DNA from: a virus
Reading direction: 5' to 3' (one strand)
IMG/VR virus record: IMGVR_UViG_3300021961_008157
Length of the DNA stretch: 64,000 nt
Below, one piece after another: positions 36,817-63,908 of the stretch. Below the pieces are notes generated by a model. It had not been told where the DNA came from, searched no databases, and saw only the letters and a list, made by a program, of their open reading frames with translations. The first letter of the stretch is position 1. Every line of letters begins with the position of its first letter. The position numbers and the translations under genes are program-made.

Positions 36817-37867
36817 ATTAATAGTTGATGTAAATTGCGGATTGCGTAAAGAATTGGCAGAGATTTCTGACGAAACTTTTTATAACTTTCAAAAGCAAAC
36901 AATTGAGCCAGACGCAGTTTATGTAATAGGCTATAATGAAACTGTTAAAAATGTTGATAAAATTAAACAGCTGGCCAATACAGAAATAGCACAGTTTATT
37001 TTTAGTAATCCTGTTGAAGGATCACAGACCATACTCAATCATTGTGGCAATATTGGTATTCTTGATTTAATCAAACAACAAAAAATTTTGCTATTAACTG
37101 GTGGCGATGTTGCACCAGAATATCCGCATCTGACCTATGACAACTTTTTACCAAAAGTTTTAGATTACAACGAAAACATTGATGCTATACAACAGTACCG
37201 TGACACATATTCAACGGATAGACCTTATAAATTTCTTTTTTTAAACGGACAGCAACGACATCATAGAAAGTTTATGATTCATGCATTGGGTGATCTACTT
37301 GACTCTGCATTATGGACAAATTTAGACACTGGTAATGGCCCTATCAAACTGTTAGACCAATATTATGAACATGCAAAATTCAATGTCAACTTTCAAACCA
37401 ATGACAAAAATGTAAAAAGCAAGTTATTCGGTAATGGAATATGGGGAGATGTATTGCTGTCTGTTAGACAATATAGTGACACTTATTTTAGTCTTGTGAC
37501 TGAAACAGTTCACAATTATCCCTACAGTTTTAGAACAGAAAAAATCTGGAAACCAGTGGCAATCGGACACCCTTGGATTGCAGTTGCCAATCGGGGTTTC
37601 TATAGAGACATGCATAACTTGGGATTTCAAACATTTGGGCATGCAATAGATGAAAGTTTTGATCTAATAGACAACGATCAAGATCGTCTTCGACGTGTTG
37701 CTGATATTGTAAAAGATCTATGTCAACAAGACCTTGCTGGTTTCCTCAATGAGTGTTATAATGTATGTAAATACAATCAACAACATCTTGCCGACATGCG
37801 ACTCAAAGTGCGGTCAGAATTTTCCAAACGATTTGAACAGTTTATAACAACATATATCAATGAATGA
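36791..37867 (+). CDS. GT10-motif glycosyltransferase-like protein (1 of 4)
   Basis: YFSLVTET...FRTEKIWKP..GHPWI...LGFQTF...IDESFD. Confidence 0.55.
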   Translation: MNIMLGKRKLIVDVNCGLRKELAEISDETFYNFQKQTIEPDAVYVIGYNETVKNVDKIKQLANTEIAQFIFSNPVEGSQTILNHCGNIGILDLIKQQKILLLTGGDVAPEYPHLTYDNFLPKVLDYNENIDAIQQYRDTYSTDRPYKFLFLNGQQRHHRKFMIHALGDLLDSALWTNLDTGNGPIKLLDQYYEHAKFNVNFQTNDKNVKSKLFGNGIWGDVLLSVRQYSDTYFSLVTETVHNYPYSFRTEKIWKPVAIGHPWIAVANRGFYRDMHNLGFQTFGHAIDESFDLIDNDQDRLRRVADIVKDLCQQDLAGFLNECYNVCKYNQQHLADMRLKVRSEFSKRFEQFITTYINE

Positions 37868-40461: not shown

Positions 40462-41672
40462 ACATCCCCCACGATAAATTTTGCGTATTACCTTGGATCA
40501 GCCTCGAAGCCAGCCCCATTGGCACTGTGAGACCTTGTTGTCTGGCCATCAATGAAATCGAAGATGATGACAACAACAAATACAAATTGGCAAATACCAG
40601 TCTGTTAGAAATACAAAATAGTACCGCAATGCGAGCTCTCCGCGAAGATTTTCTTGCAGGAAAAAAGCCTCAAACTTGTCGTCGTTGTTGGAATGAAGAA
40701 CGTGCTGGTCGAACCAGTAAGCGCATGCATACTCTAGACCGGCTCAAGCATATGATTGATCCTAATCTTTCTTGGTCCACCGATGCTATGCCGTTAATGT
40801 TTTTAGATCTTAAACTAGGCAACATCTGTAATTTAAAGTGTCGTATCTGTGGATCTTGGAGTTCAAGCCAATATGCCACAGAAGAACTCAAATTCAATAA
40901 AAAAGAAGAACAGCGCGGCAATTTTGCCTATCAAATGCTCAAAGAAGGTGCATGGCCCCGGGAAAGCGAAGACTTTTGGAATGACTTAGACAAGCACTTA
41001 GACAATATACGTTACATTGAGTTCACTGGTGGCGAACCTTTTATGATTCGCGAACATTTTCAACTGCTTCGAAAACTAGTAGATACCGGCCGCGCCTCAC
41101 AAGTAGAAATACACTACAATACCAATGGCACACAATATCCAGAAGAAGGCGAAAGCATTTGGAAACATTTTAAACATGTGGAAATTGCACTAAGCATCGA
41201 CGATGTTGAAAGTCGTTTTGAATATCAACGCACCAATGCAATTTGGGAAGATGTAGTTGCTAATGTTGAAAAGTTCCGCCAACTGCGGAGTCGTAACACT
41301 AATATTACATTACAGGCTTGTTGTACTATTAATGTGTTTAATGTTTACTACCTTGAAACAGTGGCTAATTGGTTACTGCAACAAAAGTTTGACTTCATTT
41401 ATTGGAACATGATGCACGACGCCTATTACTATAGCATTAGCACACTACCAGATGCAGCCAAAGAGGTAATTACTCAACGACTTATTACGGCCAATGTACC
41501 CGATAAAATATTAAAAGAGTTTGTTAGTGCAGCCGAGTTCATGAATAATGGCAACAGTCTTGATGGCCAACTGTTACGAATGAACATATCTGACCTTGAC
41601 CGAAAGCGTAGTCAAAATTTAGCAGATGTTGAACCCGAGTTTGCAACATTAATCAATTATGTTAAAACCTAA
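40458..41672 (+). CDS. Radical SAM protein with N-terminal twitch domain (4 of 5)
   Basis: FCVLPW...PCC...TCRRCW; core CNLKCRIC; TGGEP. Confidence 0.9.
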   Translation: MNIPHDKFCVLPWISLEASPIGTVRPCCLAINEIEDDDNNKYKLANTSLLEIQNSTAMRALREDFLAGKKPQTCRRCWNEERAGRTSKRMHTLDRLKHMIDPNLSWSTDAMPLMFLDLKLGNICNLKCRICGSWSSSQYATEELKFNKKEEQRGNFAYQMLKEGAWPRESEDFWNDLDKHLDNIRYIEFTGGEPFMIREHFQLLRKLVDTGRASQVEIHYNTNGTQYPEEGESIWKHFKHVEIALSIDDVESRFEYQRTNAIWEDVVANVEKFRQLRSRNTNITLQACCTINVFNVYYLETVANWLLQQKFDFIYWNMMHDAYYYSISTLPDAAKEVITQRLITANVPDKILKEFVSAAEFMNNGNSLDGQLLRMNISDLDRKRSQNLADVEPEFATLINYVKT

Positions 41673-42675
41673 ATTATTATGTCGTTGTCGTACGTTTGAA
41701 AATACTCGTCGAGAAAAATTAAGTCAATATTTTCAGCTGGTTAATTATAATTCTGACTATGAATATAAATCAAGCGAGTATGATGCTGTATTAGAGGATT
41801 GGAATGATACTTTTTTTCATTGGCGATATAACAATAATTTAATACCACAAGCAAAATGGTATGACAAATTTGTCTATAACGGTAGCAAGTTTATAATTGA
41901 TCATAGTTATGATAGCTACGTTAACGAGTCATCTTATTTTGAAAATAACAATACATATGTTTTAAGGTCTAAAAACTGGATCTGGATAAATGAAAATTGG
42001 CTTTATAGAAAAGCTGGATATAAAGATGTACTGCTACGCAATGTTCCTTCCCCTGATCCAACAAAGTTTTTTCTATTACTAATGAATTTAGAGCGAGCAC
42101 ACCGAACAGAGATACTCAATCGATCAACAAAATATCTTGATGATTCTATCTACAGTTATGTAGCTCGTGGTATTATACTAGACAATGAGCTATTGAACGA
42201 TCGTGGATATATCAAGAATCAATGGGCATTTTATCCGCAACGATATTCAAATACTTATTTCAGTTTGGTTGCTGAAACAACAACTAATTTAATACGCCCG
42301 AGAGACCTTTCTCCTAATAAACCTATTTTTATTAGCGAAAAAAGTTTTAAACCTTTTGCATTTAAACATCCATTTATCACATACGGAACTGCTAACACGT
42401 TGCAATATTTAAAATCTATAGGGTTTGAAACCTTTGATCATGTTATTAACGAAACATATGATTCTATCTTAGACCCATACGAACGTTTAACAGCAATAAT
42501 GATTGAGGTAGATAATTTGTATAAAGAATACAAGGAAGGAAAACAATTATTCAAAGATGCGTTATCACAAGAAAAACTCGAGCATAATTTTAATAGATTT
42601 TACGATGATGCTCTAGTAGATCAAATGTACGTCAATGAAGTTATAAACCCGATGTTGGAATTTATCAATGCTTGA
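41659..42675 (+). CDS. GT10-motif glycosyltransferase-like protein (2 of 4)
   Basis: YFSLVAET...FISEKSFKP..KHPFI...IGFETF..INETYD; visibly AT-rich. Confidence 0.55.
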   Translation: MLKPKLLCRCRTFENTRREKLSQYFQLVNYNSDYEYKSSEYDAVLEDWNDTFFHWRYNNNLIPQAKWYDKFVYNGSKFIIDHSYDSYVNESSYFENNNTYVLRSKNWIWINENWLYRKAGYKDVLLRNVPSPDPTKFFLLLMNLERAHRTEILNRSTKYLDDSIYSYVARGIILDNELLNDRGYIKNQWAFYPQRYSNTYFSLVAETTTNLIRPRDLSPNKPIFISEKSFKPFAFKHPFITYGTANTLQYLKSIGFETFDHVINETYDSILDPYERLTAIMIEVDNLYKEYKEGKQLFKDALSQEKLEHNFNRFYDDALVDQMYVNEVINPMLEFINA

Positions 42676-44046: not shown

Positions 44047-45335
44047 ACAAACCCGAAACACTTTGCATGGCGCCGTGGACGCACACGTATCTTAGCCCAC
44101 AAACAGAACGACGACTGTGTTGCGCCAGTCGCGAACCAGCACAAAGTTTTGAACAATATATTGATACAGCAGCGGGCAGCGGCAAATATCATCCAATCAC
44201 GCTAGAAGAACACTGGAACAGTGAACATATGCGCTCTGTGCGCCGCCGTATGATGGCAGGAGAAACGCTGCCTGAGTGTGATGTATGCAATAACAAACTG
44301 CTAAACACAGATGTTTACCGCAGCTATTTTTGGGCAATGTTCAAACATAAATATCCTAGCATTTGGGAGACCACGGATGTCGACGGTACGACAAGTATGC
44401 TACCAGTTAGCTGGGACTACAGGTTCAGCAACTTGTGCAACTTTAAATGCCGTATGTGTGGTGATATGTTGTCAAGCGCATGGGAAAGTGAGCAACGCCA
44501 ACATAATATGATTAACTGGCACGATCCAAAAAACAATTGGATGCGTCCCGACATACGTAAGGAGATAACGGCCTTCCAGGATCAGCAAATTGAAGCAGAA
44601 TTTGCGCAAGCTGTTGAGGAACACCGCGTAGAAGAAATATATTGGGTAGGTGGTGAGCCACTGATGTACGAGCAACACTGGCGCTATATGAAACGAGTTG
44701 TTGAACTTGGGGATGGTCCCAAAGTATATGCAAGATACAACACTAATCTATCTCGCGTTAATTATCGTGGTATTGATCTTTTTGATGGGATTATATGTCG
44801 CCTTCGTGATTGGCAAATCTGTGCAAGCCTTGACGGTACCGGACGAATTGGAGAATACGTTAGAACAGGTCTCGAATTCGATTCATGGCGCAAGAATTAT
44901 GATCGAGCAGTTGCAGCAAGCACTCATCGCCGCCAAGTCCGAATCGATTTTACTCTTACGCTGCCCGGAATGTTCGAAGTTGGGAACATTGTGCGACTCG
45001 CACAAGAAACTAACACAGATATCCTTGCCAAAGTAGTATTTGGATTTACGCCCGACATTGTAATGAGCCCGCTGGCGCTACCGCGGCATTTACTTGATCC
45101 GTGGGTGGATGAGTTGATAACTACATGTTCAGGTGCTATGCAAGATGTTTTGCTGCAACTAAAAAATCGCCCTACATTTGCAGAACAATGGCCTGACGAG
45201 TGGCGTGAAGGATTGGTTAAAGGCAAGCAGCGAATACTAACACTAGAACAAATACGCGAAGACAAGTTTACCATGGCTGACATATTGGCAGGCCGTCCCG
45301 AAATATTAGAATGGTGGAATCAAATTGACTGTTAA
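44043..45335 (+). CDS. Radical SAM protein with N-terminal twitch domain (5 of 5)
   Basis: LCMAPW...LCC...ECDVC; core CNFKCRMC; VGGEP. Confidence 0.9.
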   Translation: MNKPETLCMAPWTHTYLSPQTERRLCCASREPAQSFEQYIDTAAGSGKYHPITLEEHWNSEHMRSVRRRMMAGETLPECDVCNNKLLNTDVYRSYFWAMFKHKYPSIWETTDVDGTTSMLPVSWDYRFSNLCNFKCRMCGDMLSSAWESEQRQHNMINWHDPKNNWMRPDIRKEITAFQDQQIEAEFAQAVEEHRVEEIYWVGGEPLMYEQHWRYMKRVVELGDGPKVYARYNTNLSRVNYRGIDLFDGIICRLRDWQICASLDGTGRIGEYVRTGLEFDSWRKNYDRAVAASTHRRQVRIDFTLTLPGMFEVGNIVRLAQETNTDILAKVVFGFTPDIVMSPLALPRHLLDPWVDELITTCSGAMQDVLLQLKNRPTFAEQWPDEWREGLVKGKQRILTLEQIREDKFTMADILAGRPEILEWWNQIDC

Positions 45336-46425
45336 AGTTGTACTGCGCAATCCGTTAAAACACTCGGATCAAGTTGACTATACAATAGAGGCTGCTGACA
45401 ATGCGTTAGTGCGCGACTGGATTCCAGCATTAAAAACTCTGCTGCAATCGGGTAACTCGCTTGAGAAAAACTTTTGTTTTATGGGTTTTCCAAAAACAGC
45501 ACGTACACTTGAATACTTGTGCGATCAAGTAAATCAAGCGTCAGCAACAATAAACAACTATTTTGATGATTATTCCATTGAAGAAATATTTAGGCCCAGC
45601 ACCGTTACAACAAAAAATACTTCTCCCGACTATCCTAACATTATACAATATAAGCCTAATCACAATGTATTAAATCAATTACACAATCACTTTGAAGTGC
45701 TACAAGGTACAGTTGGGAATTTAAGCAGTTTCTATCATCGTGCTGACTATGAAACCAAATATGCCATACGACAGTTGAATAATATCTGCCACGAAATGGA
45801 ATCGTTAATTCTTAGCCAACATAAATTAGCAACTGCTCCTTACTGGGTTCGTCCCAGTCAAATCACTACATTTCTAGCGGCGCCGCGATATGAGTTAAAA
45901 GATGAACACAGAGAAGGATTTGCAACAAATGGTTATGATCGTGTATTGGGTGGCGTATATATGCATTGGGCTCAGATAGGCAAAACATTATTTGAAGTAT
46001 TTCGTGATGAAGGTGCACCTGTTTTAACAGATACTGTTTGCGAAGCTATTACTGAACTAAAGTACTACAGTGGCGAATTTGACATTGAATGGGGCAATGA
46101 TGTGGTGTATGGTGGTAATAGAGAATGGCATAACAAAGAACAAGATCAGTTCCGCCAATGGTTAACAGCCAATGGGCACGATCCCACTAATACCAAACTG
46201 AGTTTAGGGTATTTGCCAATTGGGCAGGTATTATTACAAGAAAGTTTCGGCACAACCGACCATCAAGCAATTTGGGACATACTCAGCTCACACTTAGATA
46301 TATACAAGATTGAAGTTGGCGGTGTTACAGGTACGTTTGACTATTGCTGGACAGATTCTGATTATAAGCAACGTCAGATTAACATGATGCGCCCGGGTTA
46401 CGATTACAAAGGAAGTATAACATGA
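45325..46425 (+). CDS. Hypothetical protein with His/Glu-rich helical motifs
   Basis: 366-aa coupled ORF containing LNQLHNHFE and LNNICHEME. Confidence 0.6.
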   Translation: MTVKVVLRNPLKHSDQVDYTIEAADNALVRDWIPALKTLLQSGNSLEKNFCFMGFPKTARTLEYLCDQVNQASATINNYFDDYSIEEIFRPSTVTTKNTSPDYPNIIQYKPNHNVLNQLHNHFEVLQGTVGNLSSFYHRADYETKYAIRQLNNICHEMESLILSQHKLATAPYWVRPSQITTFLAAPRYELKDEHREGFATNGYDRVLGGVYMHWAQIGKTLFEVFRDEGAPVLTDTVCEAITELKYYSGEFDIEWGNDVVYGGNREWHNKEQDQFRQWLTANGHDPTNTKLSLGYLPIGQVLLQESFGTTDHQAIWDILSSHLDIYKIEVGGVTGTFDYCWTDSDYKQRQINMMRPGYDYKGSIT

Positions 46426-46523
46426 ACTGGATTAAAAATTTGATCAACCGTATTCGTTTAGAAATACGCTATCGTAAAAAACTTAAAGAATTGAGACGTA
46501 GAGACCCTTTCATATATAAATGA
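46422..46523 (+). CDS. 33-aa basic peptide, not in the ORF track
   Basis: MNWIKNLINRIRLEIRYRKKLKELRRRDPFIYK*. ATGA overlaps at both ends (46422 and 46520). Confidence 0.75.
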   Translation: MNWIKNLINRIRLEIRYRKKLKELRRRDPFIYK

Positions 46524-48034
46524 AATTGAAAAAGTATTTGGGCATCAGTGCGGGATTTCACGATGCTTGTGTCAGCTTGATTGACAGCAGCGGCAATGTG
46601 CTGTTTGCTGGCCATGCTGAGCGTTACAGCAAGCGTAAGAATGACGCACACTTGAACGATCAACTTATAGCAGCGGCGTTGGATCGTGGTGTGCCTGATC
46701 ACGTGGCATATTATGAACGCCCATGGTTTAAGAAAATACAACAACTTTATTCGGGACAATATCATGAAGCATTCGATACTGGCGCTTTTACTCTTAGTCA
46801 GTATCTGCGCAAACATCTATCTCCTGGACCAGAACTCAATGCTTTACTCAACGCTCAACACAGCTATCACAATCATCATCAAAGTCACGCAGCCGCAGGA
46901 TTCCAAACCAGTCCATTTAACCGAGCCACCGTGGTTGTAATAGATGCTATCGGCGAGTTAGATACCATTTCTATTTGGGGCGCGGAATACGATCGCAAAG
47001 GACAAGCAGTATATAAACGTCTTTGGGTGCAGCGTTATCCTCACTCAATTGGACTATTTTATTCAGCTATTACAAAAAGATTAGGACTGCATCCCCTTGA
47101 TGAAGAATACATTACAATGGGCATGGCTGCTTATGGTAGGCCCGCTTGGGAAGATAACTTAAAGCATTTGTTAGTTGAGCATGAATGGGACGCTGAGTTT
47201 AAAGAAAACTTGCATCTAGGTCTGCCTGAAAAATTTCTTGAACATGCAGACGACTACGACATTGCTGCCAGCGCCCAGGCCTTGTGCGAAAACTTAATTT
47301 ACAACATCATGCGCCGTGCCCAAGACTTTGGCTGGAGCAACAACTTGGTATATATGGGTGGCGTAGCACTAAACTGTAGCGCCAATAGAAACTTAGGTTA
47401 TTATTTTAAAAACATCTGGATCATGCCCAATCCCGGTGATGGAGGTAGCAGTTTAGGTGCAGCCGCATTGGCATATGGGCGGCAGCTCTACTGGAAGGAT
47501 GCTTTTCTCGGCGATAATATCGGCGGATCTTATCCCACCAATGCTATACTTGACCGTTTGCTAACTGATCGTATTGTAGGCGTAGCTTCGGGTCGTGCTG
47601 AGTTCGGTCCCCGCGCACTGGGCAATCGTAGTTTACTGGCTGATCCTCGCGGCAACGATATAAAAGATCGTGTAAATGAAATCAAGCGGCGCCAAAAGTT
47701 TAGACCCTTCGCTCCAGTTATACTAGAAGAACTGGCCGACAAGTATTTTGACATGCCCCCGGGCTTTGGTACAAGTAGATACATGCAGACAGTGGCCGCA
47801 TGCCGCATGCCTGATCTTTATCCGGCTATAACACACGCCGACGGCACTAGCCGTGTACAAACTGTACCCAAAGACGAAAGTGGAATTCGTGAGTTATTAG
47901 AAAAATGGTATGTGTTGACTGACTGCCCTATGTTACTCAACACTAGTTTAAACATACGCGGTGAACCAGTAGTGAACGACCGTGGTGATGCCGATCGCTT
48001 TGAACAATTATACAACGTTAAGGTTTGTAGTTAG
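46520..48034 (+). CDS. Carbamoyltransferase, NodU/CmcH/TobZ family
   Basis: FHDA, HHQSHAA, DAIGE, GGVALNC, GRAEFGPRALGNRS, FRPFAP and LNTSLN motifs. Confidence 0.93.
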   Translation: MKLKKYLGISAGFHDACVSLIDSSGNVLFAGHAERYSKRKNDAHLNDQLIAAALDRGVPDHVAYYERPWFKKIQQLYSGQYHEAFDTGAFTLSQYLRKHLSPGPELNALLNAQHSYHNHHQSHAAAGFQTSPFNRATVVVIDAIGELDTISIWGAEYDRKGQAVYKRLWVQRYPHSIGLFYSAITKRLGLHPLDEEYITMGMAAYGRPAWEDNLKHLLVEHEWDAEFKENLHLGLPEKFLEHADDYDIAASAQALCENLIYNIMRRAQDFGWSNNLVYMGGVALNCSANRNLGYYFKNIWIMPNPGDGGSSLGAAALAYGRQLYWKDAFLGDNIGGSYPTNAILDRLLTDRIVGVASGRAEFGPRALGNRSLLADPRGNDIKDRVNEIKRRQKFRPFAPVILEELADKYFDMPPGFGTSRYMQTVAACRMPDLYPAITHADGTSRVQTVPKDESGIRELLEKWYVLTDCPMLLNTSLNIRGEPVVNDRGDADRFEQLYNVKVCS

Positions 48035-49050
48035 AGATAAGTTTCAAGTCCACCACGCCGTGTTAGATCCTGGGTACAACAGCTAATACCACCATCCCAG
48101 AAATAACTATGGCGGAGTTCACATATGATAGGATTAATGCGATGACGTTTACAGTAGTCAAACACATCTCTATTGTAAGCAGAAAAGATTACATTTTCTT
48201 CATCTAATACCAAACAGTTAACATCAAAAACTGTTTCAGCAACAAAGCCAGTCCATTTGTTTAGATAAGTGTTAACAAAGTCAGTGAACTCGGGTGTAGG
48301 TGTCTGTCCCTGTACATACCATGCTCCGGGGCTTTGCTCGTACTTAAACTTGCCCACTTCCATAGCAGCCCATATGCTACTATCCCAAATCTTTAACACT
48401 TCCCATCCAGGAAAGTCTTGGGCAAGATTAAGATTAAAATCGTGTTTGCTTGACAATAACACACCGGGTTTAAGAATGGCAAATACAGCATCGCCGTGGC
48501 CGTCGGTAACAGCTTCGTGAATACGATATTCAGAGCTTAAACAATTTTCTACAATCCATTTTGTTTGTTCAGGTTTTAGAAAATCACTGTTGTCAAAAAA
48601 AACGTCGCGGCCCACACGCACTATACAACTAGCCGATGCACCATTTAATATACAATTTGAATCCCACGTTGCGCCGTGTGGATTAATCACCTGACTAGCA
48701 TATTCAGCACAAATTTCATTTAATTCTGTCATTGGTAGCACACGCAGTAATTTTTGTCCCAGCGTTATTTGCCAATCGCGTGGTGTCAAAGGCGGTAACG
48801 GAACACCATTGCCACGTGTTTGTTGATTTTGAAACTCATGTATATCAGGAAGATTAGGGCGCCTAACACGGGCACCATAAGTTTCGATGGTTTTTTGTAA
48901 GTTGTTTAAATCCTCTTCAGTTTCGGCCAGTATCTGTTGCAGTTGATTACGCACCTGGGAGTTATCAATGAAATCAAAGTAATCGGGACTATAAGCACGA
49001 CCCACAATTACTTCTTCAAGAGGCTGCCAACTGGTGTAGGAATTAATCAT
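48031..49050 (-). CDS. Amidinotransferase (glycine/inosamine-phosphate amidinotransferase family)
   Basis: INSYTSWQPLEEVIVG N-terminus; PRD, GHGD and DGGISCCT carry the catalytic Asp/His/Cys positions. Confidence 0.85.
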   Translation of the reverse strand: MINSYTSWQPLEEVIVGRAYSPDYFDFIDNSQVRNQLQQILAETEEDLNNLQKTIETYGARVRRPNLPDIHEFQNQQTRGNGVPLPPLTPRDWQITLGQKLLRVLPMTELNEICAEYASQVINPHGATWDSNCILNGASASCIVRVGRDVFFDNSDFLKPEQTKWIVENCLSSEYRIHEAVTDGHGDAVFAILKPGVLLSSKHDFNLNLAQDFPGWEVLKIWDSSIWAAMEVGKFKYEQSPGAWYVQGQTPTPEFTDFVNTYLNKWTGFVAETVFDVNCLVLDEENVIFSAYNRDVFDYCKRHRINPIICELRHSYFWDGGISCCTQDLTRRGGLETYL

Positions 49051-50242
49051 TGCGTAATCTTTCTAATAGGGTATTTAATCTGCTGCTTTTGCTGCCTAAA
49101 AATAATTGTTGATTGTGCTCAATGTCCTTGCGGCAAGACTCAAACCATGTGTGTAAATTTTGCGATTGTATTTTGGCTATTGCGGCCTTAACTGCAAGCC
49201 ATCGCTGTGTATTATCCGTTATTGTATCATAACTGTTATCTATAGCGTGATCAAATGTTCGATAACCGAGATTTCTTAGTGCTGCCAACGATCCCGGGCA
49301 TCCAACAATAACAAGCGGTTGCCCGTGCTTGACTGGTTTAAATGTTTTTTCAGTAAGAAATGCGCCGCCCGAACCGTCGGCATCAAAGTGTGTTTCGAGT
49401 ACAATGTTGCAATATGAGTCAGTGTAGTGTGAAGTTTCGGTAAGGTGATGATTGTTTTGTTGCTCAATGGTAAACTCGTCGCAAGTGTAAGGACCGTTGC
49501 TTAAAAAATCTGCAATGTCAGACCGTATGTCTAATGTGTCTACTTCAATTGGATTGTCTGTTTCGTGCTCATTTAACGCCACATCAGTTCCATAACTCCA
49601 TAGGCAGTTATCTAACAAGCCTGCCCGGCGTAAATCAGTCATTACAGTTGCCCGCCACCACTTATGCGTTCTGCTTAATACAGTAAAATTGTAGGGACGG
49701 GAATTGCTATGTATCTGTGTTGGTTCTGTTTGCTGATTACGATGCCAATAAAGCAGTTCGTGGTCGGGAAAATATATAAAATTTTCAATAGCATCAGCTT
49801 GCGTGTTGCCACTAATAAACTTGTAACAGTTGGGAGGTAAATTGTTTAAATCACACAAATGGTCAAGACGCTGTTTAATCTTATCGGGATTGTCGCCTTC
49901 GTGATAGTAAAATAACGCACGTATTCGCCCTGACTGTAGGCCAAAGAATACATCATCGTTTAGCAGCGCAAAATAATCAACATCAAAGTTAAAAAACCCA
50001 ATCCCTATCCCATAGTAAGAGCCGCGCGGATAGTTGTTGTCGTTCAAATCATACAAGCGATAGGGTATGCTGTGGGTGTTGAGATGTTCATACAATTCCA
50101 TAGGAACTGTATTAGGCCAATGCTGAACAAATTGACGCCATTTGTGTGTATAAGGTTGCGCAGTCCAGCGTGCTAGTGCTGGATAAGCCTTGCCTTGGAT
50201 GATGTTGTCAGATACAAAATTAATATTTGAGTAGTCCATCAA
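49043..50242 (-). CDS. GT10-motif glycosyltransferase-like protein (3 of 4)
   Basis: YCNIVLET...FLTEKTFKP..GQPLV...LGYRTF..IDNSYD. Confidence 0.55.
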   Translation of the reverse strand: MMDYSNINFVSDNIIQGKAYPALARWTAQPYTHKWRQFVQHWPNTVPMELYEHLNTHSIPYRLYDLNDNNYPRGSYYGIGIGFFNFDVDYFALLNDDVFFGLQSGRIRALFYYHEGDNPDKIKQRLDHLCDLNNLPPNCYKFISGNTQADAIENFIYFPDHELLYWHRNQQTEPTQIHSNSRPYNFTVLSRTHKWWRATVMTDLRRAGLLDNCLWSYGTDVALNEHETDNPIEVDTLDIRSDIADFLSNGPYTCDEFTIEQQNNHHLTETSHYTDSYCNIVLETHFDADGSGGAFLTEKTFKPVKHGQPLVIVGCPGSLAALRNLGYRTFDHAIDNSYDTITDNTQRWLAVKAAIAKIQSQNLHTWFESCRKDIEHNQQLFLGSKSSRLNTLLERLRND

Positions 50243-51338
50243 GCATTTTGGTTAATTCTAACCATAGTGTATGAGTAAGCCCACCGTTGTAAAAATGTCT
50301 ATAGTTGTGTTCTACAGCGGGCAAACAGGCACGATGTATTTCCAACCTTTCACGATGGCTTAAATTATCTAAATCTTTAAGTAAATCGGTTACACGCTCA
50401 AGGCGGCGTATATCATCAGTTTCTTCATCATAACTTTCATCAAACACATCGCCAAATGTTTTAAAACCATAACTCCGCATGTATTCTAAGCTGTGCGCCG
50501 GTGCCACTAAAACAAATGGCATTTCTAGAGCAATAGCCTTAAATGTTTTTTCTGTTATGTGAGTTCTGCGGCCAAAATATAAAGTTTCTGTAGGAACATA
50601 TACCAAACTGTCTTCTGCTTCCCTAAAATTAGTAAGCCAACAACTGGTCATCTGCTGTGTTTCTTCGCCAGCAAATAATCTTGGCAAATCAGCTTGCTCA
50701 AGAACTTGCGAAATATCAGAATATGTGTTACAATACTTTTGTGCTATTGTACCGATATCTACTTGCTCATAAGAACAAACACGCGGCGCACTAATATGAT
50801 TATTTTCTAAATTCTTTTTGAATACGTTATATAAAAACAATACGCGATGATCACGTTTACCACCAACAATGCGATTTGGGCTCATAAAAGTTTTTGTAGG
50901 GGTTCGTTCTCGCGCTCGAGGTATTAAAAATGTTCTATCATAGCCACGAAACCAATCTTGACAAGCCCAACCGTGATAAAAGTAATAGTGACTGCGCCAA
51001 CCGTATTTTTCACATAAGCGTTCAACGTATTCGCCCTTTTCACTTACAATAATGTTACCAGGAAAAAGAATTTCCGTTCCGGGTCCTTTTGGTTGTTGAG
51101 TATCTAAATTTCTTCTTATTACATCATCAAATAATGGCTTATATTCATCAATCCAGCAAGGTTCCTGATCGTGCATGAATACATAATCATTTTCTACAAT
51201 GACATCACTGCCCAAGTTAAATAGTGCATCGGGACTGGTATTGCCCGGTGGATCACAATAAAACAATCGAGTGCCTGGTTTATTTTTTTCAAGCCACGGC
51301 CAAAAGGTATTATTATAAATCTCGTCTATTCTAATCAT
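50220..51338 (-). CDS. GT10-motif glycosyltransferase-like protein (4 of 4)
   Basis: LVYVPTET...HITEKTFKA..EMPFV...YGFKTF..FDESYD. Confidence 0.55.
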   Translation of the reverse strand: MIRIDEIYNNTFWPWLEKNKPGTRLFYCDPPGNTSPDALFNLGSDVIVENDYVFMHDQEPCWIDEYKPLFDDVIRRNLDTQQPKGPGTEILFPGNIIVSEKGEYVERLCEKYGWRSHYYFYHGWACQDWFRGYDRTFLIPRARERTPTKTFMSPNRIVGGKRDHRVLFLYNVFKKNLENNHISAPRVCSYEQVDIGTIAQKYCNTYSDISQVLEQADLPRLFAGEETQQMTSCWLTNFREAEDSLVYVPTETLYFGRRTHITEKTFKAIALEMPFVLVAPAHSLEYMRSYGFKTFGDVFDESYDEETDDIRRLERVTDLLKDLDNLSHRERLEIHRACLPAVEHNYRHFYNGGLTHTLWLELTKMLDGLLKY

Positions 51339-53166
51339 GTTTGATGTATTTTACACAGGTGTTAAACCCAATTTGTTTGCTCATGAACAGGCAGTAGATT
51401 CTATTGAAGAAGCACAAGAGCTTAGTCGCACTCGTTTCTTTTGGTTTGTCAATTACTTATCTGATTATAGCGGCTTTGATTTTCTTTGGGAACCCAAACC
51501 TTGGGAGGCGCATCAGCGCCATGCCTGGCCAAGCCAATGGCAAAAAGATAGCGGTACCTATCTAGTACCTAAACAAGGGTATAGCGAAACCAACTATAGG
51601 GGCGACTGTGCAATTAAACGTTTGCCCGATACGTCTAATTGGTTTGTTCCCGATACATTTGATGGAAGCAGTTTTGATTTTTCTTGGCATCCGGATCCCA
51701 CCGAGCCTGGCTACATATATCAATTTGGTACACAACATCAACGCACAGGCGGCCCCCAGTATATTGTAAACGGTGCTTCTGACTTAAAATTCTGTGACCA
51801 AATTAAGGGTAGTGTTAAATCTGGAGTAACCCCCATTATTGAAATAAATCATATGGATGGTAATGCTGGACTTGTACCAGGTGTAATATCTACTGTACGT
51901 TATTTTGACAACTATAAAGACACACTATCTAGAATTGCAAATACAGTAGAGCACGAATACATTTGGATTGTTAGTAGTGTATGTGATTACACTAATTTTG
52001 ATTTTTCCTGGCACCCAGAATTATGGCAAAACACCATGCTGCATGTGTTTGCCAGCTCTGGTGAAAAATTTGGTGACACATTTTATATGCATGTGCCAAG
52101 TTTTAAAAATCGCATAAAACAGTTTGACTTGCTAGACTGGTATGATTTAAATTTTATCAACACATCAGTTCCGCGCAGGCCACTGCCTATTGTGCGGCAC
52201 ACCAGTGACAGCCAAGCTGAACCCGTTAAAAATGAATCTTGGCTCGGTCCGTTGGCAGTATTTGCTGCCCACGATCAACCAGTTAACTCAGTTCCGTGCG
52301 TACCACTGTGGCGTGAAAAAACCAAAACAATTGTTCCTTTAGATGCCAGTGGATCGACTGTTGTTGTTCCTCGAGTGGCCATTCCATATATTAAAACACA
52401 GTTGTATGATTATCCTTACATAGACAAAACTAAACGAAATATGTGCAGTGACGAACCACTGGACATTGTGTTCATTAGCAACGGTGAGCCAGTGGCCGAC
52501 CAAACATTTACACATTTACAAAATGTTGCTGCTGACTTGTTTAATAAGAAAAAAATACATCATGTTGATCGTGTAAACGGCCGTGCTGCTGCCTATCATG
52601 CTGCTGCACAGGCCAGCACCACACCGTGGTTTTTTGCTGTATTTGCCAAGTTATTTGTAAATGAAAGTTTTGATTGGTCCTGGCAGCCTGATCGCATGCA
52701 ACAACCCAAGCATTACATTTTTCATGCGCTAAATCCAGTTAACGGACTTGAGTATGGACATCAAGCAATGATTGCTTATAATAAACAATTGGTATTAAAC
52801 AATCCCGGACATGGACTGGACTTTACACTTGACGATGCGCACGAAGTTGTACCAATACTTTCAGGTACTGCTGTGTACAATATGTCGCCGTGGGTAGCGT
52901 GGCGTACTGCATTCCGCGAAGCAATTAAACTAAAAAGCAGTTTGCCCGATATTGACAGTGAGTATAGACTGACGCAATGGTTAAGCACCAATCCTGGAAG
53001 TCAGCATATATTAAATGAGGAATGGAGTCGTTGGGGTGCCGAAGACGCTGTTGACTATTACGACCAGGTTAACGGGGATTTTAGGGCACTTAAAAAGAGC
53101 TACGAGTGGGACTGGCTCTCGTCTTACGCTTTTATGAAAAGAAGTTTAACACCCGATCAGCAATAA
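51337..53166 (+). CDS. Multi-repeat GT-A-like protein, paralog of 33865-34791 lacking the DxD motif
   Basis: C-terminal LDIVFISNGEP...VNGRAAAYHAAAQAS...NGLEYG...AWRTAFREAIKL; recurring FD(F/W)xW(H/E/Q)P motifs. Confidence 0.6.
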   Translation: MFDVFYTGVKPNLFAHEQAVDSIEEAQELSRTRFFWFVNYLSDYSGFDFLWEPKPWEAHQRHAWPSQWQKDSGTYLVPKQGYSETNYRGDCAIKRLPDTSNWFVPDTFDGSSFDFSWHPDPTEPGYIYQFGTQHQRTGGPQYIVNGASDLKFCDQIKGSVKSGVTPIIEINHMDGNAGLVPGVISTVRYFDNYKDTLSRIANTVEHEYIWIVSSVCDYTNFDFSWHPELWQNTMLHVFASSGEKFGDTFYMHVPSFKNRIKQFDLLDWYDLNFINTSVPRRPLPIVRHTSDSQAEPVKNESWLGPLAVFAAHDQPVNSVPCVPLWREKTKTIVPLDASGSTVVVPRVAIPYIKTQLYDYPYIDKTKRNMCSDEPLDIVFISNGEPVADQTFTHLQNVAADLFNKKKIHHVDRVNGRAAAYHAAAQASTTPWFFAVFAKLFVNESFDWSWQPDRMQQPKHYIFHALNPVNGLEYGHQAMIAYNKQLVLNNPGHGLDFTLDDAHEVVPILSGTAVYNMSPWVAWRTAFREAIKLKSSLPDIDSEYRLTQWLSTNPGSQHILNEEWSRWGAEDAVDYYDQVNGDFRALKKSYEWDWLSSYAFMKRSLTPDQQ

Positions 53167-54220
53167 CATCTACTTCGCTGTCGGTCAATTCGGGATAGAT
53201 GGGCAAACTTAAACAACGACGGCTTAATGAGCTGGCTGCACTTAACATGCTTGGTCCCGTGTACTGTCTATAGATGCCAATTTCATGCAACGGTTGTTCA
53301 TAGTGTATTTTTGTTTCAATACCCAACTCTAGTAGAGTATCTTGGAGTTGGTCACGACGATCAACTTCAATAACAAACTTATGATGTGCATGTTCGTCTA
53401 TATTAGTGTCATCAATAAGGCATCGCACCGGGGAATCTTTAAAACGCTCAATATAATGACGACTAATTGCAGCACGACGCTGTTGCCATTCGTGCAAGTA
53501 TTGTGTCTTAAGCAGCATTAGTGCACATTCTAGCTCGCTCATTCGACTATTAGTGCCCGCAACATCACCGTCGGGCTTCCCGTTACCCCGCCATTTACGA
53601 GCAAAACTTGCCAAGTCTTGACTGTCGGTTATAATGGCACCACCGTTACCATACGCAGATAAATTTTTTGTTGGATCAAAACTAATGGCTGTGGCTTCAC
53701 CTACTCGCATTGAATTATTGGCTAACCAATGCTGGGCACCGTCTTCGATTATAAGTTTGTCACTTCTTGTCCAATAGTTCCACCATTTAACTCCGTTAAA
53801 GTTACTAAGACTGGACCCATACAAGCCCACAAGTAATATAGCCTGATAACTGGTGTCGGGAACAGCGTTTATATTAAACAATCCATAGTTGTCAGTGTCA
53901 ATGAACACCACATCCCACCCCGCTCGAATAAAAGCATTGGCAGTAGCCGCGTAAGTAAGCGTAGGTATTAGTACTGTGGGCGGGTGCGGCACACCAGTAT
54001 ATTCTATGGAGTATTCAGCAATGATTTCTAATGCTTGTGTACCCGAATGGCAAGTGATTGCATACTCACTGTGATTAGTGCGGGCTAACCAATCTTCAAA
54101 ATTCCGAGTGTACTTACCATTCATCAGTTGTCCACTAGACAACACGCTATCAGTTACATCCAGTAACTCATCGCGAAGTTGTTTATACTGTCTTTTGAGA
54201 CCAGTAAACGGAATTTTCAT
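53132..54220 (-). CDS. DegT/DnrJ/EryC1/StrS family PLP-dependent sugar aminotransferase
   Basis: SGTQAL, EDGAQ, SFDPTKNLSAYGNGG (catalytic Lys) and LSLPIYPEL. Likely start MKIPF at 54220. Confidence 0.92.
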   Translation of the reverse strand: MKIPFTGLKRQYKQLRDELLDVTDSVLSSGQLMNGKYTRNFEDWLARTNHSEYAITCHSGTQALEIIAEYSIEYTGVPHPPTVLIPTLTYAATANAFIRAGWDVVFIDTDNYGLFNINAVPDTSYQAILLVGLYGSSLSNFNGVKWWNYWTRSDKLIIEDGAQHWLANNSMRVGEATAISFDPTKNLSAYGNGGAIITDSQDLASFARKWRGNGKPDGDVAGTNSRMSELECALMLLKTQYLHEWQQRRAAISRHYIERFKDSPVRCLIDDTNIDEHAHHKFVIEVDRRDQLQDTLLELGIETKIHYEQPLHEIGIYRQYTGPSMLSAASSLSRRCLSLPIYPELTDSEVDVIADRVLNFFS

Positions 54221-55139
54221 AGTATCTTTCAAATCCTTCGGCGATGTTCACAGTTGGATTAAAGTTTAGATCTCGGCGTGCAGCGTCGATGTTCAAGGAT
54301 CCGCGACTGGGGAAATTTAAGTCTCGATCCTGTACTCGAATAGTTCCAGATCCTACAATATCAATGATTGTTTCGGCTGCTTCTAATAGTGTGATCGCAT
54401 GACTTCTTGTGAGATTATAAGTGTTATTGGCTGCATGATCAGACAATGCGGCTTGCACAATACCTGCTGCCAGATCTGTTACATATGTAAAGTCTAATTC
54501 TTCATCGGGTCCATTTACTGACAACTCACCACCGCGCATAGCAGTAAGCATGAACTTGGCCACTACACGATCTTCAACATCTAGTGGACCATAAACAGCA
54601 GAAGGACGAATAATTACTGCTTCGATGCCCGACCGCCGAGCATAGTCTCGAACAAGCCATTCACCTGCTAGTTTCATAATACCATATTGTCCTTGTGGAT
54701 TGCATACAGCATCTTCGCGTACATCGTTATCAAAATCTCCATAAACCATTGAGCTGGAAATATAAACAAACCGACGCACACGATTCCGCACGGCACTTTC
54801 AAGAAGATTAAGCAACCCTTCCATCATGGTACGACTACCCCACCCAGGATTGCTGTTAACTACTTTTTGCCTTGGAAAGCTGGCCAGGTGCACAATCACT
54901 TCGGGTTGATGTTTACCAACTATGTAATCAATGGTATCACTACTTTCAATTGATGCTGTATATACTGGGCTGGCAATATTTTTCATACGTTGGCTCAATA
55001 GATAATCTATTTCTGCTTGTGGAATAATGCCATAGGTGGTTTTGTTATCAATAATAGCAACTTCGTGTTTTAATTGCTCCAATGTTTTTACAACATTGTG
55101 CCCTATAAAACCGCAACCACCTGTAACTAAAATATTCAT
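54183..55139 (-). CDS. NAD-dependent nucleotide-sugar epimerase/dehydratase (extended SDR)
   Basis: ILVTGGCGFIG, YISSSMVYG, YGIMK (YxxxK) and DFTYVTD. Confidence 0.92.
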   Translation of the reverse strand: MNILVTGGCGFIGHNVVKTLEQLKHEVAIIDNKTTYGIIPQAEIDYLLSQRMKNIASPVYTASIESSDTIDYIVGKHQPEVIVHLASFPRQKVVNSNPGWGSRTMMEGLLNLLESAVRNRVRRFVYISSSMVYGDFDNDVREDAVCNPQGQYGIMKLAGEWLVRDYARRSGIEAVIIRPSAVYGPLDVEDRVVAKFMLTAMRGGELSVNGPDEELDFTYVTDLAAGIVQAALSDHAANNTYNLTRSHAITLLEAAETIIDIVGSGTIRVQDRDLNFPSRGSLNIDAARRDLNFNPTVNIAEGFERYYENSVYWSQKTV

Positions 55140-55378
55140 TGGAATTTTAACTTGTAAAAAATTAAATCAGCTTCGCCTAATTTTGCACATATTTGATAGT
55201 GATGGTAGTAATCAAATGTTGGTGCACGTTGCCACCAAGGCGTTTCAACCGAGTGCTCCATTACCCATTGTCCTGCATCGCTTTTTTCCCACTTCAGTAT
55301 TGGCTCGGCTGCATAAAGATCCGGATCTTCAACGTCGGGTACATTAAATGTGTGTACTATAACCGTTGACGTTTTCAT
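55136..55378 (-). CDS. Hypothetical protein
   Basis: Likely start ATG 55378 (MKTSTVIV), 7 nt after TATAAT. Confidence 0.6.
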   Translation of the reverse strand: MKTSTVIVHTFNVPDVEDPDLYAAEPILKWEKSDAGQWVMEHSVETPWWQRAPTFDYYHHYQICAKLGEADLIFYKLKFQ

Positions 55379-55385
55379 GTCTACT

Positions 55386-55413
55386 ATTATAGCATAAAAC
55401 AATCAATTAGCAA
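55386..55413 (-). promoter_or_regulatory. Sigma70-like promoter TTGCTA-N16-TATAAT with extended -10
   Basis: Minus strand reads ttgcta attgattgttttatgc tataat agtagac ATG. Confidence 0.55.
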
Positions 55414-56071
55414 CCAACTCGGAAGACATTGGAAAGATTTTTGCAATAGTTTCTGCACAAGCCAGTGCAATTTGTTGGTGCTCTTTTTGCGTACCGTTTC
55501 CCGATCTCAGTTGGATAAAATGAATCCAAGAACGTAGTGTGCCGTTCATATAAAGACGAGATACAGTTAGCCCTTCGGGCAGCACAGCGCGAGCTTGCTC
55601 CTTGGCAATGCCATTGCTAATAGCCCATTTGTACGCATTTTTAGCTGTTCGTATTACAGCTTGTTGTTGCTCTGCCCACAATCGTTTCAGTTCACGATCG
55701 TCAATTTCAATAGAGTTTTGTCGGTTCTTTGTATCTTGTAAGCGAGCTTCCCGCAACACAAAAGCCAAGTCATTTACTGGATCAGCATAGCGTTGGGAAA
55801 ACTCTTGAAAACTAAAACTGCGATGTCGTAGTATTTGACGAGCAATGTCTCGCGTGGTTTCAATTTCCAAACAAGCACTGACCATTTCAAGTGGGCTCCA
55901 GTGCTGATGACGAATCAAATAGCGTATTAGTTTTTCGCTGGTGTCAGTGTTTAACTGATTAGCAGGATTGCTTACGCGGGCACAGTAAGCAATAAGTTCC
56001 TGCGCATCTTCAATTCCTAAGTTGTTAAATTCTTCAGTGGGTTGGCTATAAGATAAAAGTTTAACTGTCAT
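55403..56071 (-). CDS. thyX: Flavin-dependent thymidylate synthase
   Basis: HWSPLE, QILRHRSFSFQEFSQRY (RHRxxSxxxxSxR motif) and AKEQARAVLP. Confidence 0.95.
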   Translation of the reverse strand: MTVKLLSYSQPTEEFNNLGIEDAQELIAYCARVSNPANQLNTDTSEKLIRYLIRHQHWSPLEMVSACLEIETTRDIARQILRHRSFSFQEFSQRYADPVNDLAFVLREARLQDTKNRQNSIEIDDRELKRLWAEQQQAVIRTAKNAYKWAISNGIAKEQARAVLPEGLTVSRLYMNGTLRSWIHFIQLRSGNGTQKEHQQIALACAETIAKIFPMSSELVAN

Positions 56072-58255: not shown

Positions 58256-58552
58256 TTATTCTTCTGCTCTAAAACTAGTACAACTGTCATTCCACACTTC
58301 TTGTGCTTGTTTTTTGTACAGTTCTAATTCATATTCGCCTAGTGCTGCTTGATACTGCTCTTCGGTAAGATTGTGCCAGCCCACACACTTGCCAGTGGGA
58401 CTACGTCCGCAACCACAGCGACCAAACTCTTCGGGATTTTCTTTTACTCTAACTTGCATGTCTTTTTTTCGGGAAAAGATACGATCATAGTTGCTACCAT
58501 ATACATCTTGTGATACGCTAAAGGGGCGTGGTGACGAACCTTTACCTGACAT
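58256..58552 (-). CDS. CDGSH-like [2Fe-2S] domain protein
   Basis: CGCGRSPTGKCVGWH gives a 3Cys-1His arrangement like the CDGSH consensus. Confidence 0.65.
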   Translation of the reverse strand: MSGKGSSPRPFSVSQDVYGSNYDRIFSRKKDMQVRVKENPEEFGRCGCGRSPTGKCVGWHNLTEEQYQAALGEYELELYKKQAQEVWNDSCTSFRAEE

Positions 58553-58710
58553 TAAACCATCTCCTCCACGACCCCTAGTAGTTCTGCACCAATAAGTAAA
58601 GCGCCTGCATATGCTACTTCGCCATACAGTAAAGCCAAGCCAGCGGCAATCCGAATGCCACTTTTTACAAGGCTAACATAGAAATGACCTTTGCTGGTAT
58701 TAAGATTCAT
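58552..58710 (-). CDS. Small membrane protein
   Basis: Likely start MNLNTSKGHF at 58710; hydrophobic hairpin ending ELLGVVEEMV. Confidence 0.6.
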   Translation of the reverse strand: MNLNTSKGHFYVSLVKSGIRIAAGLALLYGEVAYAGALLIGAELLGVVEEMV

Positions 58711-58834
58711 AATTTTTTCCACATGTACAATTTCGACCTTGATTGCAATCGTGATTGCAATCGCTTGTTGGTAATGCAATAACAATATTATACACGATTA
58801 CAATTGTTAATGCAACGATTATTAACAGTATCAT
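58700..58834 (-). CDS. 44-aa membrane-anchored Cys-rich microprotein, not in the ORF track
   Basis: MILLIIVALTIVIVYNIVIALPTSDCNHDCNQGRNCTCGKNYES*. Confidence 0.6.
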   Translation of the reverse strand: MILLIIVALTIVIVYNIVIALPTSDCNHDCNQGRNCTCGKNYES

Positions 58835-63232: not shown

Positions 63233-63908
63233 ATTTTTCGCACCATTCTTGTGTCACAACGCCCGATATCATTAAAAAGATTCTATCATGCTCGGTAAAA
63301 TTATGTCCGTAATGTGGCATAGCATTTTTAAGTATAACAGCATCTCCGGCTTTCCAATTTTTCCATACTTGAGTTCCTAAGCAAAATGCTTGTCCTGGCT
63401 TCCAATCCTCAACTGCAATTAGAATTTTGCGATTTAAATAATCTTTAAGGAATCCCCCACGGCGAACTTTTTCGCCATTGACTAATTCAAAATTGTGATC
63501 CATATGACAGACTGTCATCGAATATGGTGTTTGTACACTAAAACTCATTGACCAGCTCAGAAATCCAAATTTTTTACCCAAATGCCATTGAGAATTTTTG
63601 TCAGACACTTTAGCCAAATAAAATGATTCGTATCCTGCCTTATATCCTGCGTCAACTAAACATTGAACAGTATCTTTAATTTCGTCATACCCTTGCTTAT
63701 CTTCACTTTCCGAAGAAGATTCAAGAACACAACTGTACATATTAACAAAATCTATAGGTACCCACGGAGTTCCGCTATAAACAATACCGCGCCAGTTACC
63801 AATTTCTTCAGGCAATACGCCTGGTATTTTTACCAAGTCTGATTTCCGAAATTGTCGATCGAATTCATAAAAACCGCCGTCTCGACTTTGTTGACTTGCT
63901 ACTTTCAT
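63222..63908 (-). CDS. Cupin/2OG-Fe(II) oxygenase-like protein (aspartyl beta-hydroxylase-like)
   Basis: HMD (HxD), then WKAGDAV...PHYGHN...DRIFLMISG with a distal His and Arg. Confidence 0.55.
   Translation of the reverse strand: MKVASQQSRDGGFYEFDRQFRKSDLVKIPGVLPEEIGNWRGIVYSGTPWVPIDFVNMYSCVLESSSESEDKQGYDEIKDTVQCLVDAGYKAGYESFYLAKVSDKNSQWHLGKKFGFLSWSMSFSVQTPYSMTVCHMDHNFELVNGEKVRRGGFLKDYLNRKILIAVEDWKPGQAFCLGTQVWKNWKAGDAVILKNAMPHYGHNFTEHDRIFLMISGVVTQEWCEKYGC

Follow-up and report, generated by a model that had tools for sequence, protein, structure and literature searches.

We analysed a 64,000-nucleotide stretch of viral DNA (IMG/VR record IMGVR_UViG_3300021961_008157), hereafter called the window, and concentrated on 8.6 kb of it in which genes for a carbamoyltransferase, an amidinotransferase, a DegT-family aminotransferase and a short-chain dehydrogenase/reductase (SDR) lie close together. 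The window derives from an uncultured T4-like jumbo phage, with baseplate hub and wedge genes among its gene content. It starts with an SbcD-like nuclease and late-sigma genes, continues with virion, baseplate hub and wedge genes, and then carries a 4804-amino-acid open reading frame (ORF) and a gene for a tail fibre that includes an intramolecular-chaperone domain. Directly behind these baseplate, giant-protein and tail-fibre genes is a block of enzymes of about 25 kb, the enzyme island, and the 8.6-kb stretch is its distal third. Close relatives in IMG/VR have genomes of 320-365 kb with direct terminal repeats. Our genome-wide statements come from three IMG/VR relatives, 98-100% complete, which stand in for the source phage. 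The genes of the distal part of the island and its borders are as follows.

45325..46425, plus strand: 366-amino-acid protein, the final large gene of a radical S-adenosylmethionine (SAM) operon, upstream of the carbamoyltransferase
46422..46523, plus strand: basic ORF of 33 amino acids, with a 4-nt overlap with each neighbour (the 366-amino-acid gene and the carbamoyltransferase)
46520..48034, plus strand: NodU/CmcH/TobZ-type carbamoyltransferase, with a Kae1-like N domain and a YrdC-like C domain
48031..49050, minus strand: type-1 phage amidinotransferase of the pentein fold (family profile and AlphaFold2 (AF2) model)
49043..50242, minus strand: GT-B-fold glycosyltransferase-like protein, 399 amino acids (AF2 and Foldseek), with a GT10-like E...TEK motif
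50220..51338, minus strand: 372-amino-acid paralogue of the 399-amino-acid GT-B-like protein (BLASTP)
51337..53166, plus strand: 609-amino-acid repeat protein with four FD[FYW]SWxP units
53132..54232, minus strand: DegT/DnrJ/EryC1-family pyridoxal phosphate (PLP)-dependent sugar aminotransferase (Pfam, PDB match)
54183..55139, minus strand: extended SDR, nucleoside diphosphate (NDP)-sugar epimerase-like (Pfam Epimerase, motifs)
55136..55402, minus strand: ORF of 88 amino acids (gene table)
55403..56071, minus strand: ThyX flavin-dependent thymidylate synthase, the first large gene of the DegT/SDR minus-strand block

The carbamoyltransferase, amidinotransferase and DegT genes occupy three separate strand blocks. 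Those for the amidinotransferase and the carbamoyltransferase are convergent, their 3' ends overlapping by 4 nt (48031-48034), and start-over-stop overlaps join the amidinotransferase gene to the 399-amino-acid gene and the latter to the 372-amino-acid gene. Around the transferases lie the genes of four GT-B paralogues and of five radical SAM enzymes. A first-pass annotation had placed the four enzymes within 9 kb, and all four are encoded there by full-length open frames that appear intact. A megablast search of the region against cultured phage DNA gave no match, and the T4 late-promoter motif TATAAATA was not found in the window. Across the 35 ORFs that lie at 28.6-58.8 kb, no clear transmembrane segment is encoded, a 77-amino-acid ORF (58552-58785) being borderline, and no exporter, resistance gene or phosphotransferase was seen in the transmembrane scan and Pfam searches of the window proteins.

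Families and active sites of the island enzymes

The product of 48031-49050 is, by sequence and predicted structure, clearly a member of the AGAT/StrB1/SxtG/HsvA amidinotransferase family, for which arginine-dependent transfer is predicted. It has no Pfam match. A phmmer search returned AGAT at 1e-13, followed by HsvA, SxtG and StrB1 down to 2e-11, and a family profile of 108 sequences matched the four solved amidinotransferases at 6e-37 to 3e-33. In Foldseek, the AF2 model (pLDDT 91.8) matched SxtG, StrB1, HsvA and AGAT at 5e-21 to 1e-19 with a template-modelling (TM) score of ~0.65, while the hydrolases DDAH, arginine deiminase and agmatine deiminase came ten orders of magnitude behind, at 3e-10 or worse. 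Placement relative to StrB1 and AGAT was by these profile and fold scores, according to which AGAT, SxtG and HsvA are as close to the enzyme as StrB1 is; a special kinship to the streptidine enzyme, as the first-pass analogy would have it, is not borne out.

The active site appears to differ in part from that of AGAT. The PRD, GHGD and GGISC motifs had been described as intact, and all three are indeed present (residues 90-92, 184-187 and 320-324). Cys324 aligns with the nucleophile C407 of AGAT and is invariant in the family (n=108), His185 aligns with the general base H303 (107 of 108 members), and the two guanidinium-binding Asp residues, D92 and D187, align with D170 (105/108) and D305 (108/108). 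However, the triad Asp of the FDAA(D/N) motif (AGAT D254, StrB1 D179) aligns with Ser139, in a column that is variable across the family (N in 21 members, S in 18 and D in 16), and to this extent the description fails. The family has an invariant Asp, D319, in an FWDGG motif five residues before the Cys, and the residue immediately before the Cys is Ser323 in the window lineage instead of the usual His. This large phage family comprises 695 clusters (50% identity) and >580 IMG/VR loci and is essentially virus-only, with 14 matches in 185,579 species genomes, all of them on contigs of metagenome-assembled genomes. Longer homologues, of up to 572 amino acids, contain no Pfam domain and offer no fusion clue.

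The carbamoyltransferase matches Carbam_trans_N (PF02543, 3e-35) and Carbam_trans_C (PF16861, 2e-46), each over almost the full domain length, as well as PHROG 1601 ('Nol-like carbamoyltransferase' of cyanophages) at 4e-90. Its best solved relatives in the PDB are NovN (8e-46), GdmN and TobZ (5e-30). The HHQSH, IDAIGE, GDGGSS, GPRALGNRS, FRPFAP, DGTSRVQ and NTSLN blocks align to NovN, and the metal-binding HxxxH/Asp and carbamoyl-phosphate/ATP blocks of O-carbamoyltransferases are, by this alignment, present; with both domains and the catalytic blocks in place, the earlier assignment to an intact NodU/TobZ-type enzyme holds. Such enzymes are common in marine T4-like phages (136 phage records matched), and in pelagiphage HTVC008M the gene has a UDP-sugar dehydrogenase and a methyltransferase for company. 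Among cultured phages, the closest homologue (45% identical) is encoded by RsoM2USA, a soil jumbo phage of Ralstonia, where an N-twitch radical SAM gene (50% identity) stands two genes upstream of the carbamoyltransferase (L182:11799-16560); all of these, the carbamoyltransferase homologue included, are annotated as hypothetical.

One marine clade of phages has a carbamoyltransferase gene that abuts or overlaps thyX (L142:1998-4225; L098:5474-6717), and one is present in 10 of 79 ThyX loci. This adjacency may reflect shared gene order or a link to nucleotide metabolism. The ThyX of the window itself scores as a canonical equivalog (TIGR02170, 164 bits with a cut-off of 87.9) and matches Pfam Thy1.

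The DegT protein matches PF01041 at 3e-60 over model positions 4-359 of 360, and its PDB matches are led by 7b0d (5e-46), followed by DesV, QdtB and WbpE. The Schiff-base lysine block SFDPTKNL aligns to SFYPTKNL of 7b0d and the EDGAQ block aligns also, which confirms a full-length aminotransferase with an intact PLP lysine block. The neighbouring SDR matches Pfam Epimerase at 4e-42, and is closest, among solved structures, to a UDP-glucose 4-epimerase (4zrm, 5e-25); it contains GGCGFIG, SSSMVYG and YGIMK, in which the GxxGxxG and YxxxK motifs are intact. NDP-sugar 4,6-dehydratases of the RmlB type carry a catalytic Asp-Glu pair after Ser/Thr (the T-D-E motif). The window SDR lacks this pair, and its scores with the NCBIfam equivalogs are all far under the cut-offs. 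A 4,6-dehydratase role was rejected on the SSSMVYG sequence in place of Asp-Glu, and the protein looks like an epimerase on its motifs, in agreement with the first-pass annotation.

The 399-, 372-, 609- and 366-amino-acid proteins have no counterpart in Pfam, PHROGs or NCBIfam, and PDB sequence searches with the first three returned only noise. The AF2 model of the 399-amino-acid protein (predicted TM-score 0.67) is confident in its C-terminal half, and its top 50 Foldseek matches are all GT-B glycosyltransferases, with E values of ~1e-3 to 1e-2 and low TM; these include the protein O-glycosyltransferases GtfA and SdgB and the T4 beta-glucosyltransferase. A test for GT10 membership gave a mixed outcome: the TEKTFK motif is present and there is an Atlas lead of 0.79, but PF00852 is not matched and two GT10 fucosyltransferases rank only 44 and 47. 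The 372-amino-acid protein matches the 399-amino-acid protein at 2e-11 by BLASTP across the C-terminal TEKTFK region, and two further GT-B-like copies (36791-37867 and 41659-42675), which cluster with the 372-amino-acid protein, bring the paralogues to four. In the 609-amino-acid protein, the FD[FYW]SWxP units are spaced ~65 residues apart where tandem. Their number ranges from 4 in the window to 10 in relatives, with protein lengths of 600-1330 amino acids, and Pfam searches of the long homologues gave sub-threshold noise only. This protein may serve in binding or may itself be a substrate of glycosylation. The 33-amino-acid ORF is very basic, and relatives L001-L003 have a gene of equal length at the same position.

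Gene company within and beyond the lineage

Within the lineage the island is stable in content. All 47 full-length loci contain the SDR, the amidinotransferase and the carbamoyltransferase, and 45 of them contain the DegT gene; the 366-amino-acid protein is also present in 47/47 full loci, at ~40% identity.

Beyond the lineage, we compared 95 distant phage loci, with amidinotransferases 27-38% identical to the window enzyme, with 79 control loci centred on ThyX (L204-L282), which are shorter and come from a single marine clade. GT-B-like paralogues occur near the amidinotransferase in 21 of the 95 loci, N-twitch radical SAM genes in 17-26, SDR genes in 7-14 and FkbM methyltransferases in 7, and each of the four is found in 0/79 controls, from which UDP-sugar dehydrogenase genes, another recurrent neighbour of the phage enzymes, are absent too. 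These data support an association of amidinotransferases in phages with sugar chemistry. The trio of transferases, however, is not conserved outside the lineage: a carbamoyltransferase is near the amidinotransferase in 3/95 distant loci, and a DegT gene in 0/95 by BLAST and phmmer, with one fragment found by Pfam. The three transferases are thus neighbours in an island and not a dedicated three-step pathway. In a quick tree of the amidinotransferases, those associated with islands fall into several separate clades, and the window clade forms its own long branch, outside a clade with small partner genes.

These partner genes, and not sugar genes, are the commonest neighbours of the type-1 amidinotransferases. 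Three small genes, widespread in IMG/VR, form a tight operon with the enzyme (for example, L116:8699-11098); two adjoin it at a median of ~2 nt and the third lies ~400 nt upstream. They encode a DUF6875-like protein of ~165 amino acids (39-41/95 loci), an ATE_C-like GNAT of ~144 amino acids that resembles arginyl-tRNA transferases (33/95 loci; Pfam 2e-4, PDB arginyltransferase 0.014, Atlas 0.98) and a DUF6614 protein (23-25/95 loci). None of the three was found within the window.

The complete relatives each carry two to three amidinotransferase paralogues. A type-2 paralogue in relative G001 (L201:5468-6385, about 319.5-320.4 kb) matches StrB1 at 1.5e-60, compared with ~1e-25 for the others, and keeps the LDAAN Asp, HIDST and GGGFHC, that is, the canonical Asp/His/Cys triad; a UDP-sugar dehydrogenase gene is nearby. 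As this paralogue is specifically StrB1-like, it is this gene, and not the one in the window, that best corresponds to the streptidine enzyme within the lineage. A UDP-sugar dehydrogenase and a cupin adjoin the enzyme in 7/7 loci of a deep type-2 clade (for example, L127:4498-7146), and a GT-B gene is close in 6/7. At 63261-63446 the window contains a short match (4e-08) to a cupin/Asp-Arg-hydroxylase-like family, which in other phages is a companion of type-2 amidinotransferases.

Both types occur in a cultured cyanophage, Synechococcus phage S-SCSM2R. ORF266 is a type-1 homologue, 31% identical to the window enzyme, and ORF309 is a type-2 amidinotransferase inside a glycosyltransferase operon (ORF305-309) with DegT-like and radical SAM genes. 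The ORF266 product was detected in the virion proteome (PMC12801897). The same 2025 paper labels similar genes as 'antibiotic synthesis genes', a label that is annotation only (PMC12801897).

What the island may build

Our results are compatible with the island being a cytoplasmic system for building and tailoring a glycan, probably on a component of the phage, a reading to which we give an even chance. The gene integrity, the folds, the family membership, the operon overlaps and the recurrent gene company were established by the analysis. The three complete relatives lack a sugar-1-phosphate nucleotidyltransferase, so that NDP-sugars of the host must be used, and this absence, together with the lack of a clear transmembrane protein in the island, indicates a system that is cytoplasmic and starts from host NDP-sugars. 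Assembly of a surface polysaccharide by phage-encoded membrane machinery was rejected, since no transmembrane protein was found. In the glycan system as we envisage it, host nucleotide sugars would be the starting material, from which the SDR and the DegT enzyme may produce an amino sugar; the four GT-B-like paralogues would transfer sugars to an acceptor, for which a virion protein would be the likeliest phage component. The carbamoyltransferase would O-carbamoylate a hydroxyl with carbamoyl phosphate and ATP, as do TobZ and NodU, and the amidinotransferase would move an amidino group from arginine, via a thiouronium intermediate on Cys324, onto a primary amine to give a guanidine. That this amine belongs to the product of the DegT enzyme is, within the glycan reading, a tentative suggestion. 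We are similarly cautious about the most specific form of the proposal, in which a virus-only branch of amidinotransferases, whose active site would have been remodelled by loss of the FDAAD Asp and gain of an invariant FWD Asp, would guanidinylate amino sugars of a cytoplasmic glycan on virion components, alongside carbamoylation and radical-SAM editing, in aquatic T4-like phages; this is possible but on the doubtful side. We know of no glycoconjugate reported to contain guanidino sugars.

Several observations weigh against the glycan reading. The donors, every acceptor and the sugar nature of the amine acceptor are ones we infer; the genome-wide absences come from stand-in relatives, and the control loci are short and of a single clade. 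Because the SDR lacks the dehydratase residues, the DegT enzyme is left with no obvious source of a keto-sugar. The median identity of the amidinotransferase among the lineage loci is 84%, compared with 50-66% for its island neighbours, which suggests that it has not co-evolved with a variable glycan. Its junction with the carbamoyltransferase gene is a hotspot for insertions, with gaps of 3-4628 nt in relatives L004-L083; in L001-L003, a beta-lactamase/peptidase-S11-like gene and a 182-amino-acid gene occupy the junction. Moreover, the largest type-1 clade is coupled to the ATE_C-like GNAT, DUF6614 and the DUF6875-like protein and not to sugar enzymes, and the three complete relatives have all three partners, ~55 kb from the island and with no amidinotransferase adjoining (L200:7749-9036, about 189.7-191.0 kb, in G001).

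It is therefore conceivable, although we lean against it, that the amidinotransferase acts independently of the sugar enzymes as part of an arginine- or guanidine-modifying system with the three distant partner genes, in which case it may act on a polyamine, on an amino acid or on a side chain of a peptide or protein, and may have come to lie in the island by chance, the region being hypervariable. The partner families flanking the enzyme in 23-41 of the 95 distant loci, their joint presence in each complete relative and the much stronger conservation of the amidinotransferase than of its neighbours all favour such a system, as do the detection of the type-1 homologue ORF266 in the S-SCSM2R virion proteome (PMC12801897) and the action of a solved relative, HsvA, on polyamines, as the title of its structure indicates. 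However, the partners are some 55 kb away in this lineage, where they adjoin a gp51-like baseplate gene, the portal gene and a SegE-type GIY-YIG endonuclease gene, whereas the amidinotransferase gene overlaps GT-B genes; the long branch of the window clade falls outside the partner-carrying clade; and island amidinotransferases without adjoining partners recur in several clades. A single pathway of the SDR, DegT enzyme, amidinotransferase and carbamoyltransferase to a free aminoglycoside-like small molecule is, in our view, improbable. Four intact-looking enzymes inside 9 kb, their maintenance in 45-47 of 47 lineage loci, a StrB1-like paralogue elsewhere in the lineage (1.5e-60) and the published 'antibiotic synthesis genes' of a cyanophage (PMC12801897) speak for it. 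Yet the trio is not found again beyond the lineage (3/95 for the carbamoyltransferase and 0-1/95 for DegT), the window enzyme shows no particular kinship with StrB1, and the transmembrane and Pfam scans revealed neither an exporter nor a resistance gene; a distribution of the genes over three strand blocks, amid four paralogues of the GT-B type and five enzymes of the radical SAM class, also fits a polymer or conjugate better than a small molecule. Moreover, inositol-1-phosphate synthase (PF07994) and the DHQ-synthase type (PF01761) are absent from the three complete relatives, in searches whose controls were positive; a cyclitol product, for want of a cyclitol-forming enzyme in these genomes, was rejected as a candidate. 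Hence, of the earlier proposal of one pathway to a guanidino- and carbamoyl-substituted amino sugar or cyclitol, the setting in sugar chemistry survives, but neither the trio as a unit nor the cyclitol does.

The last alternative is hypermodification of DNA, through a carbamoylated hydroxymethyl-pyrimidine or a DNA-attached sugar, with the GT-B proteins, the DegT enzyme and the amidinotransferase decorating the base. A characterised phage carbamoyltransferase makes 5-carbamoyloxymethylcytosine (PMC8670742), the T4 beta-glucosyltransferase is among the GT-B fold matches, and ThyX, lying 7 kb away, gives a weak further hint, given the carbamoyltransferases in 10/79 ThyX loci that abut thyX where checked. 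In the MetaGPA study, DNA-modifying carbamoyltransferases co-occurred with a ThyA-like dCMP hydroxymethylase, dCMP deaminase and PRA-PH domains, whereas those flanked by glycosyltransferases sat on unmodified contigs; the discriminating residues were at TobZ positions W408, G421 and R423 (PMC8670742). The first-pass annotation had seen no hydroxymethylase in the window and advised a search of the rest of the genome; a search of the three relatives likewise found no ThyA-family gene (PF00303), although its positive controls were found. As ThyX is also canonical by score and the island sits among tail genes and not replication genes, we regard this explanation as very improbable. Carbamoylation of 5-hydroxymethylcytosine, which had been raised as the alternative to a sugar product, is accordingly disfavoured, by the missing ThyA-family gene and the glycosyltransferase-flanked MetaGPA carbamoyltransferases alike, and is, like a cyclitol product, unlikely.

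If the island does decorate virion proteins, large phages would build cationic amino-, guanidino- and carbamoyl-bearing glycans of a kind not yet described, with consequences for host recognition and for the shielding of virions. As the amidinotransferase clade is abundant and essentially viral, assaying one enzyme would supply an annotation for thousands of genes, and RsoM2USA provides a tractable system for the pair of carbamoyltransferase and radical SAM enzyme. Our analysis also corrects the attractive but unsupported reading that a phage makes an aminoglycoside, which is present as annotation in the cyanophage literature; the aminoglycoside analogy describes available chemistry and not a demonstrated pathway.

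Comparison with known systems

Compared with AGAT, StrB1, SxtG and HsvA (1jdw, 1bwd, 6u1r and 5wpi), the window amidinotransferase keeps the pentein fold, the Cys, the His and the two guanidinium-binding Asp residues, and is equally distant from all four. It differs from AGAT in the replacement of the FDAAD Asp at a variable position (Ser139 in the window enzyme), in having Asp or Glu in the phage clade where AGAT has Ser355, and in being 40-50 residues shorter. The carbamoyltransferase shares its two-domain architecture and catalytic blocks with TobZ, NovN, GdmN and PHROG 1601, but its closest cultured homologue is an unannotated jumbo-phage protein (45%).

The biosynthesis of streptidine and bluensidine proceeds by transamination and then amidino transfer, with carbamoylation in bluensidine. 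The formal chemistry of the island resembles this branch (StsC, StrB1), and relatives carry a StrB1-like paralogue (1.5e-60); unlike the streptidine pathway, however, the phage relatives have no cyclitol synthase, no phosphotransferase or exporter was seen, and the StrB1-like gene lies outside the window. With the carbamoyltransferase system that acts on 5-hydroxymethylcytosine, the island has the enzyme family and a phage origin in common, but the neighbours in the window are GT-B and radical SAM genes and the relatives lack the ThyA family. The same general theme is found in a cultured phage, S-SCSM2R, although the partners there are 2-oxoglutarate oxygenases and GT2/GT25 glycosyltransferases, whereas those in the window are GT10-like proteins, N-twitch radical SAM enzymes and the carbamoyltransferase.

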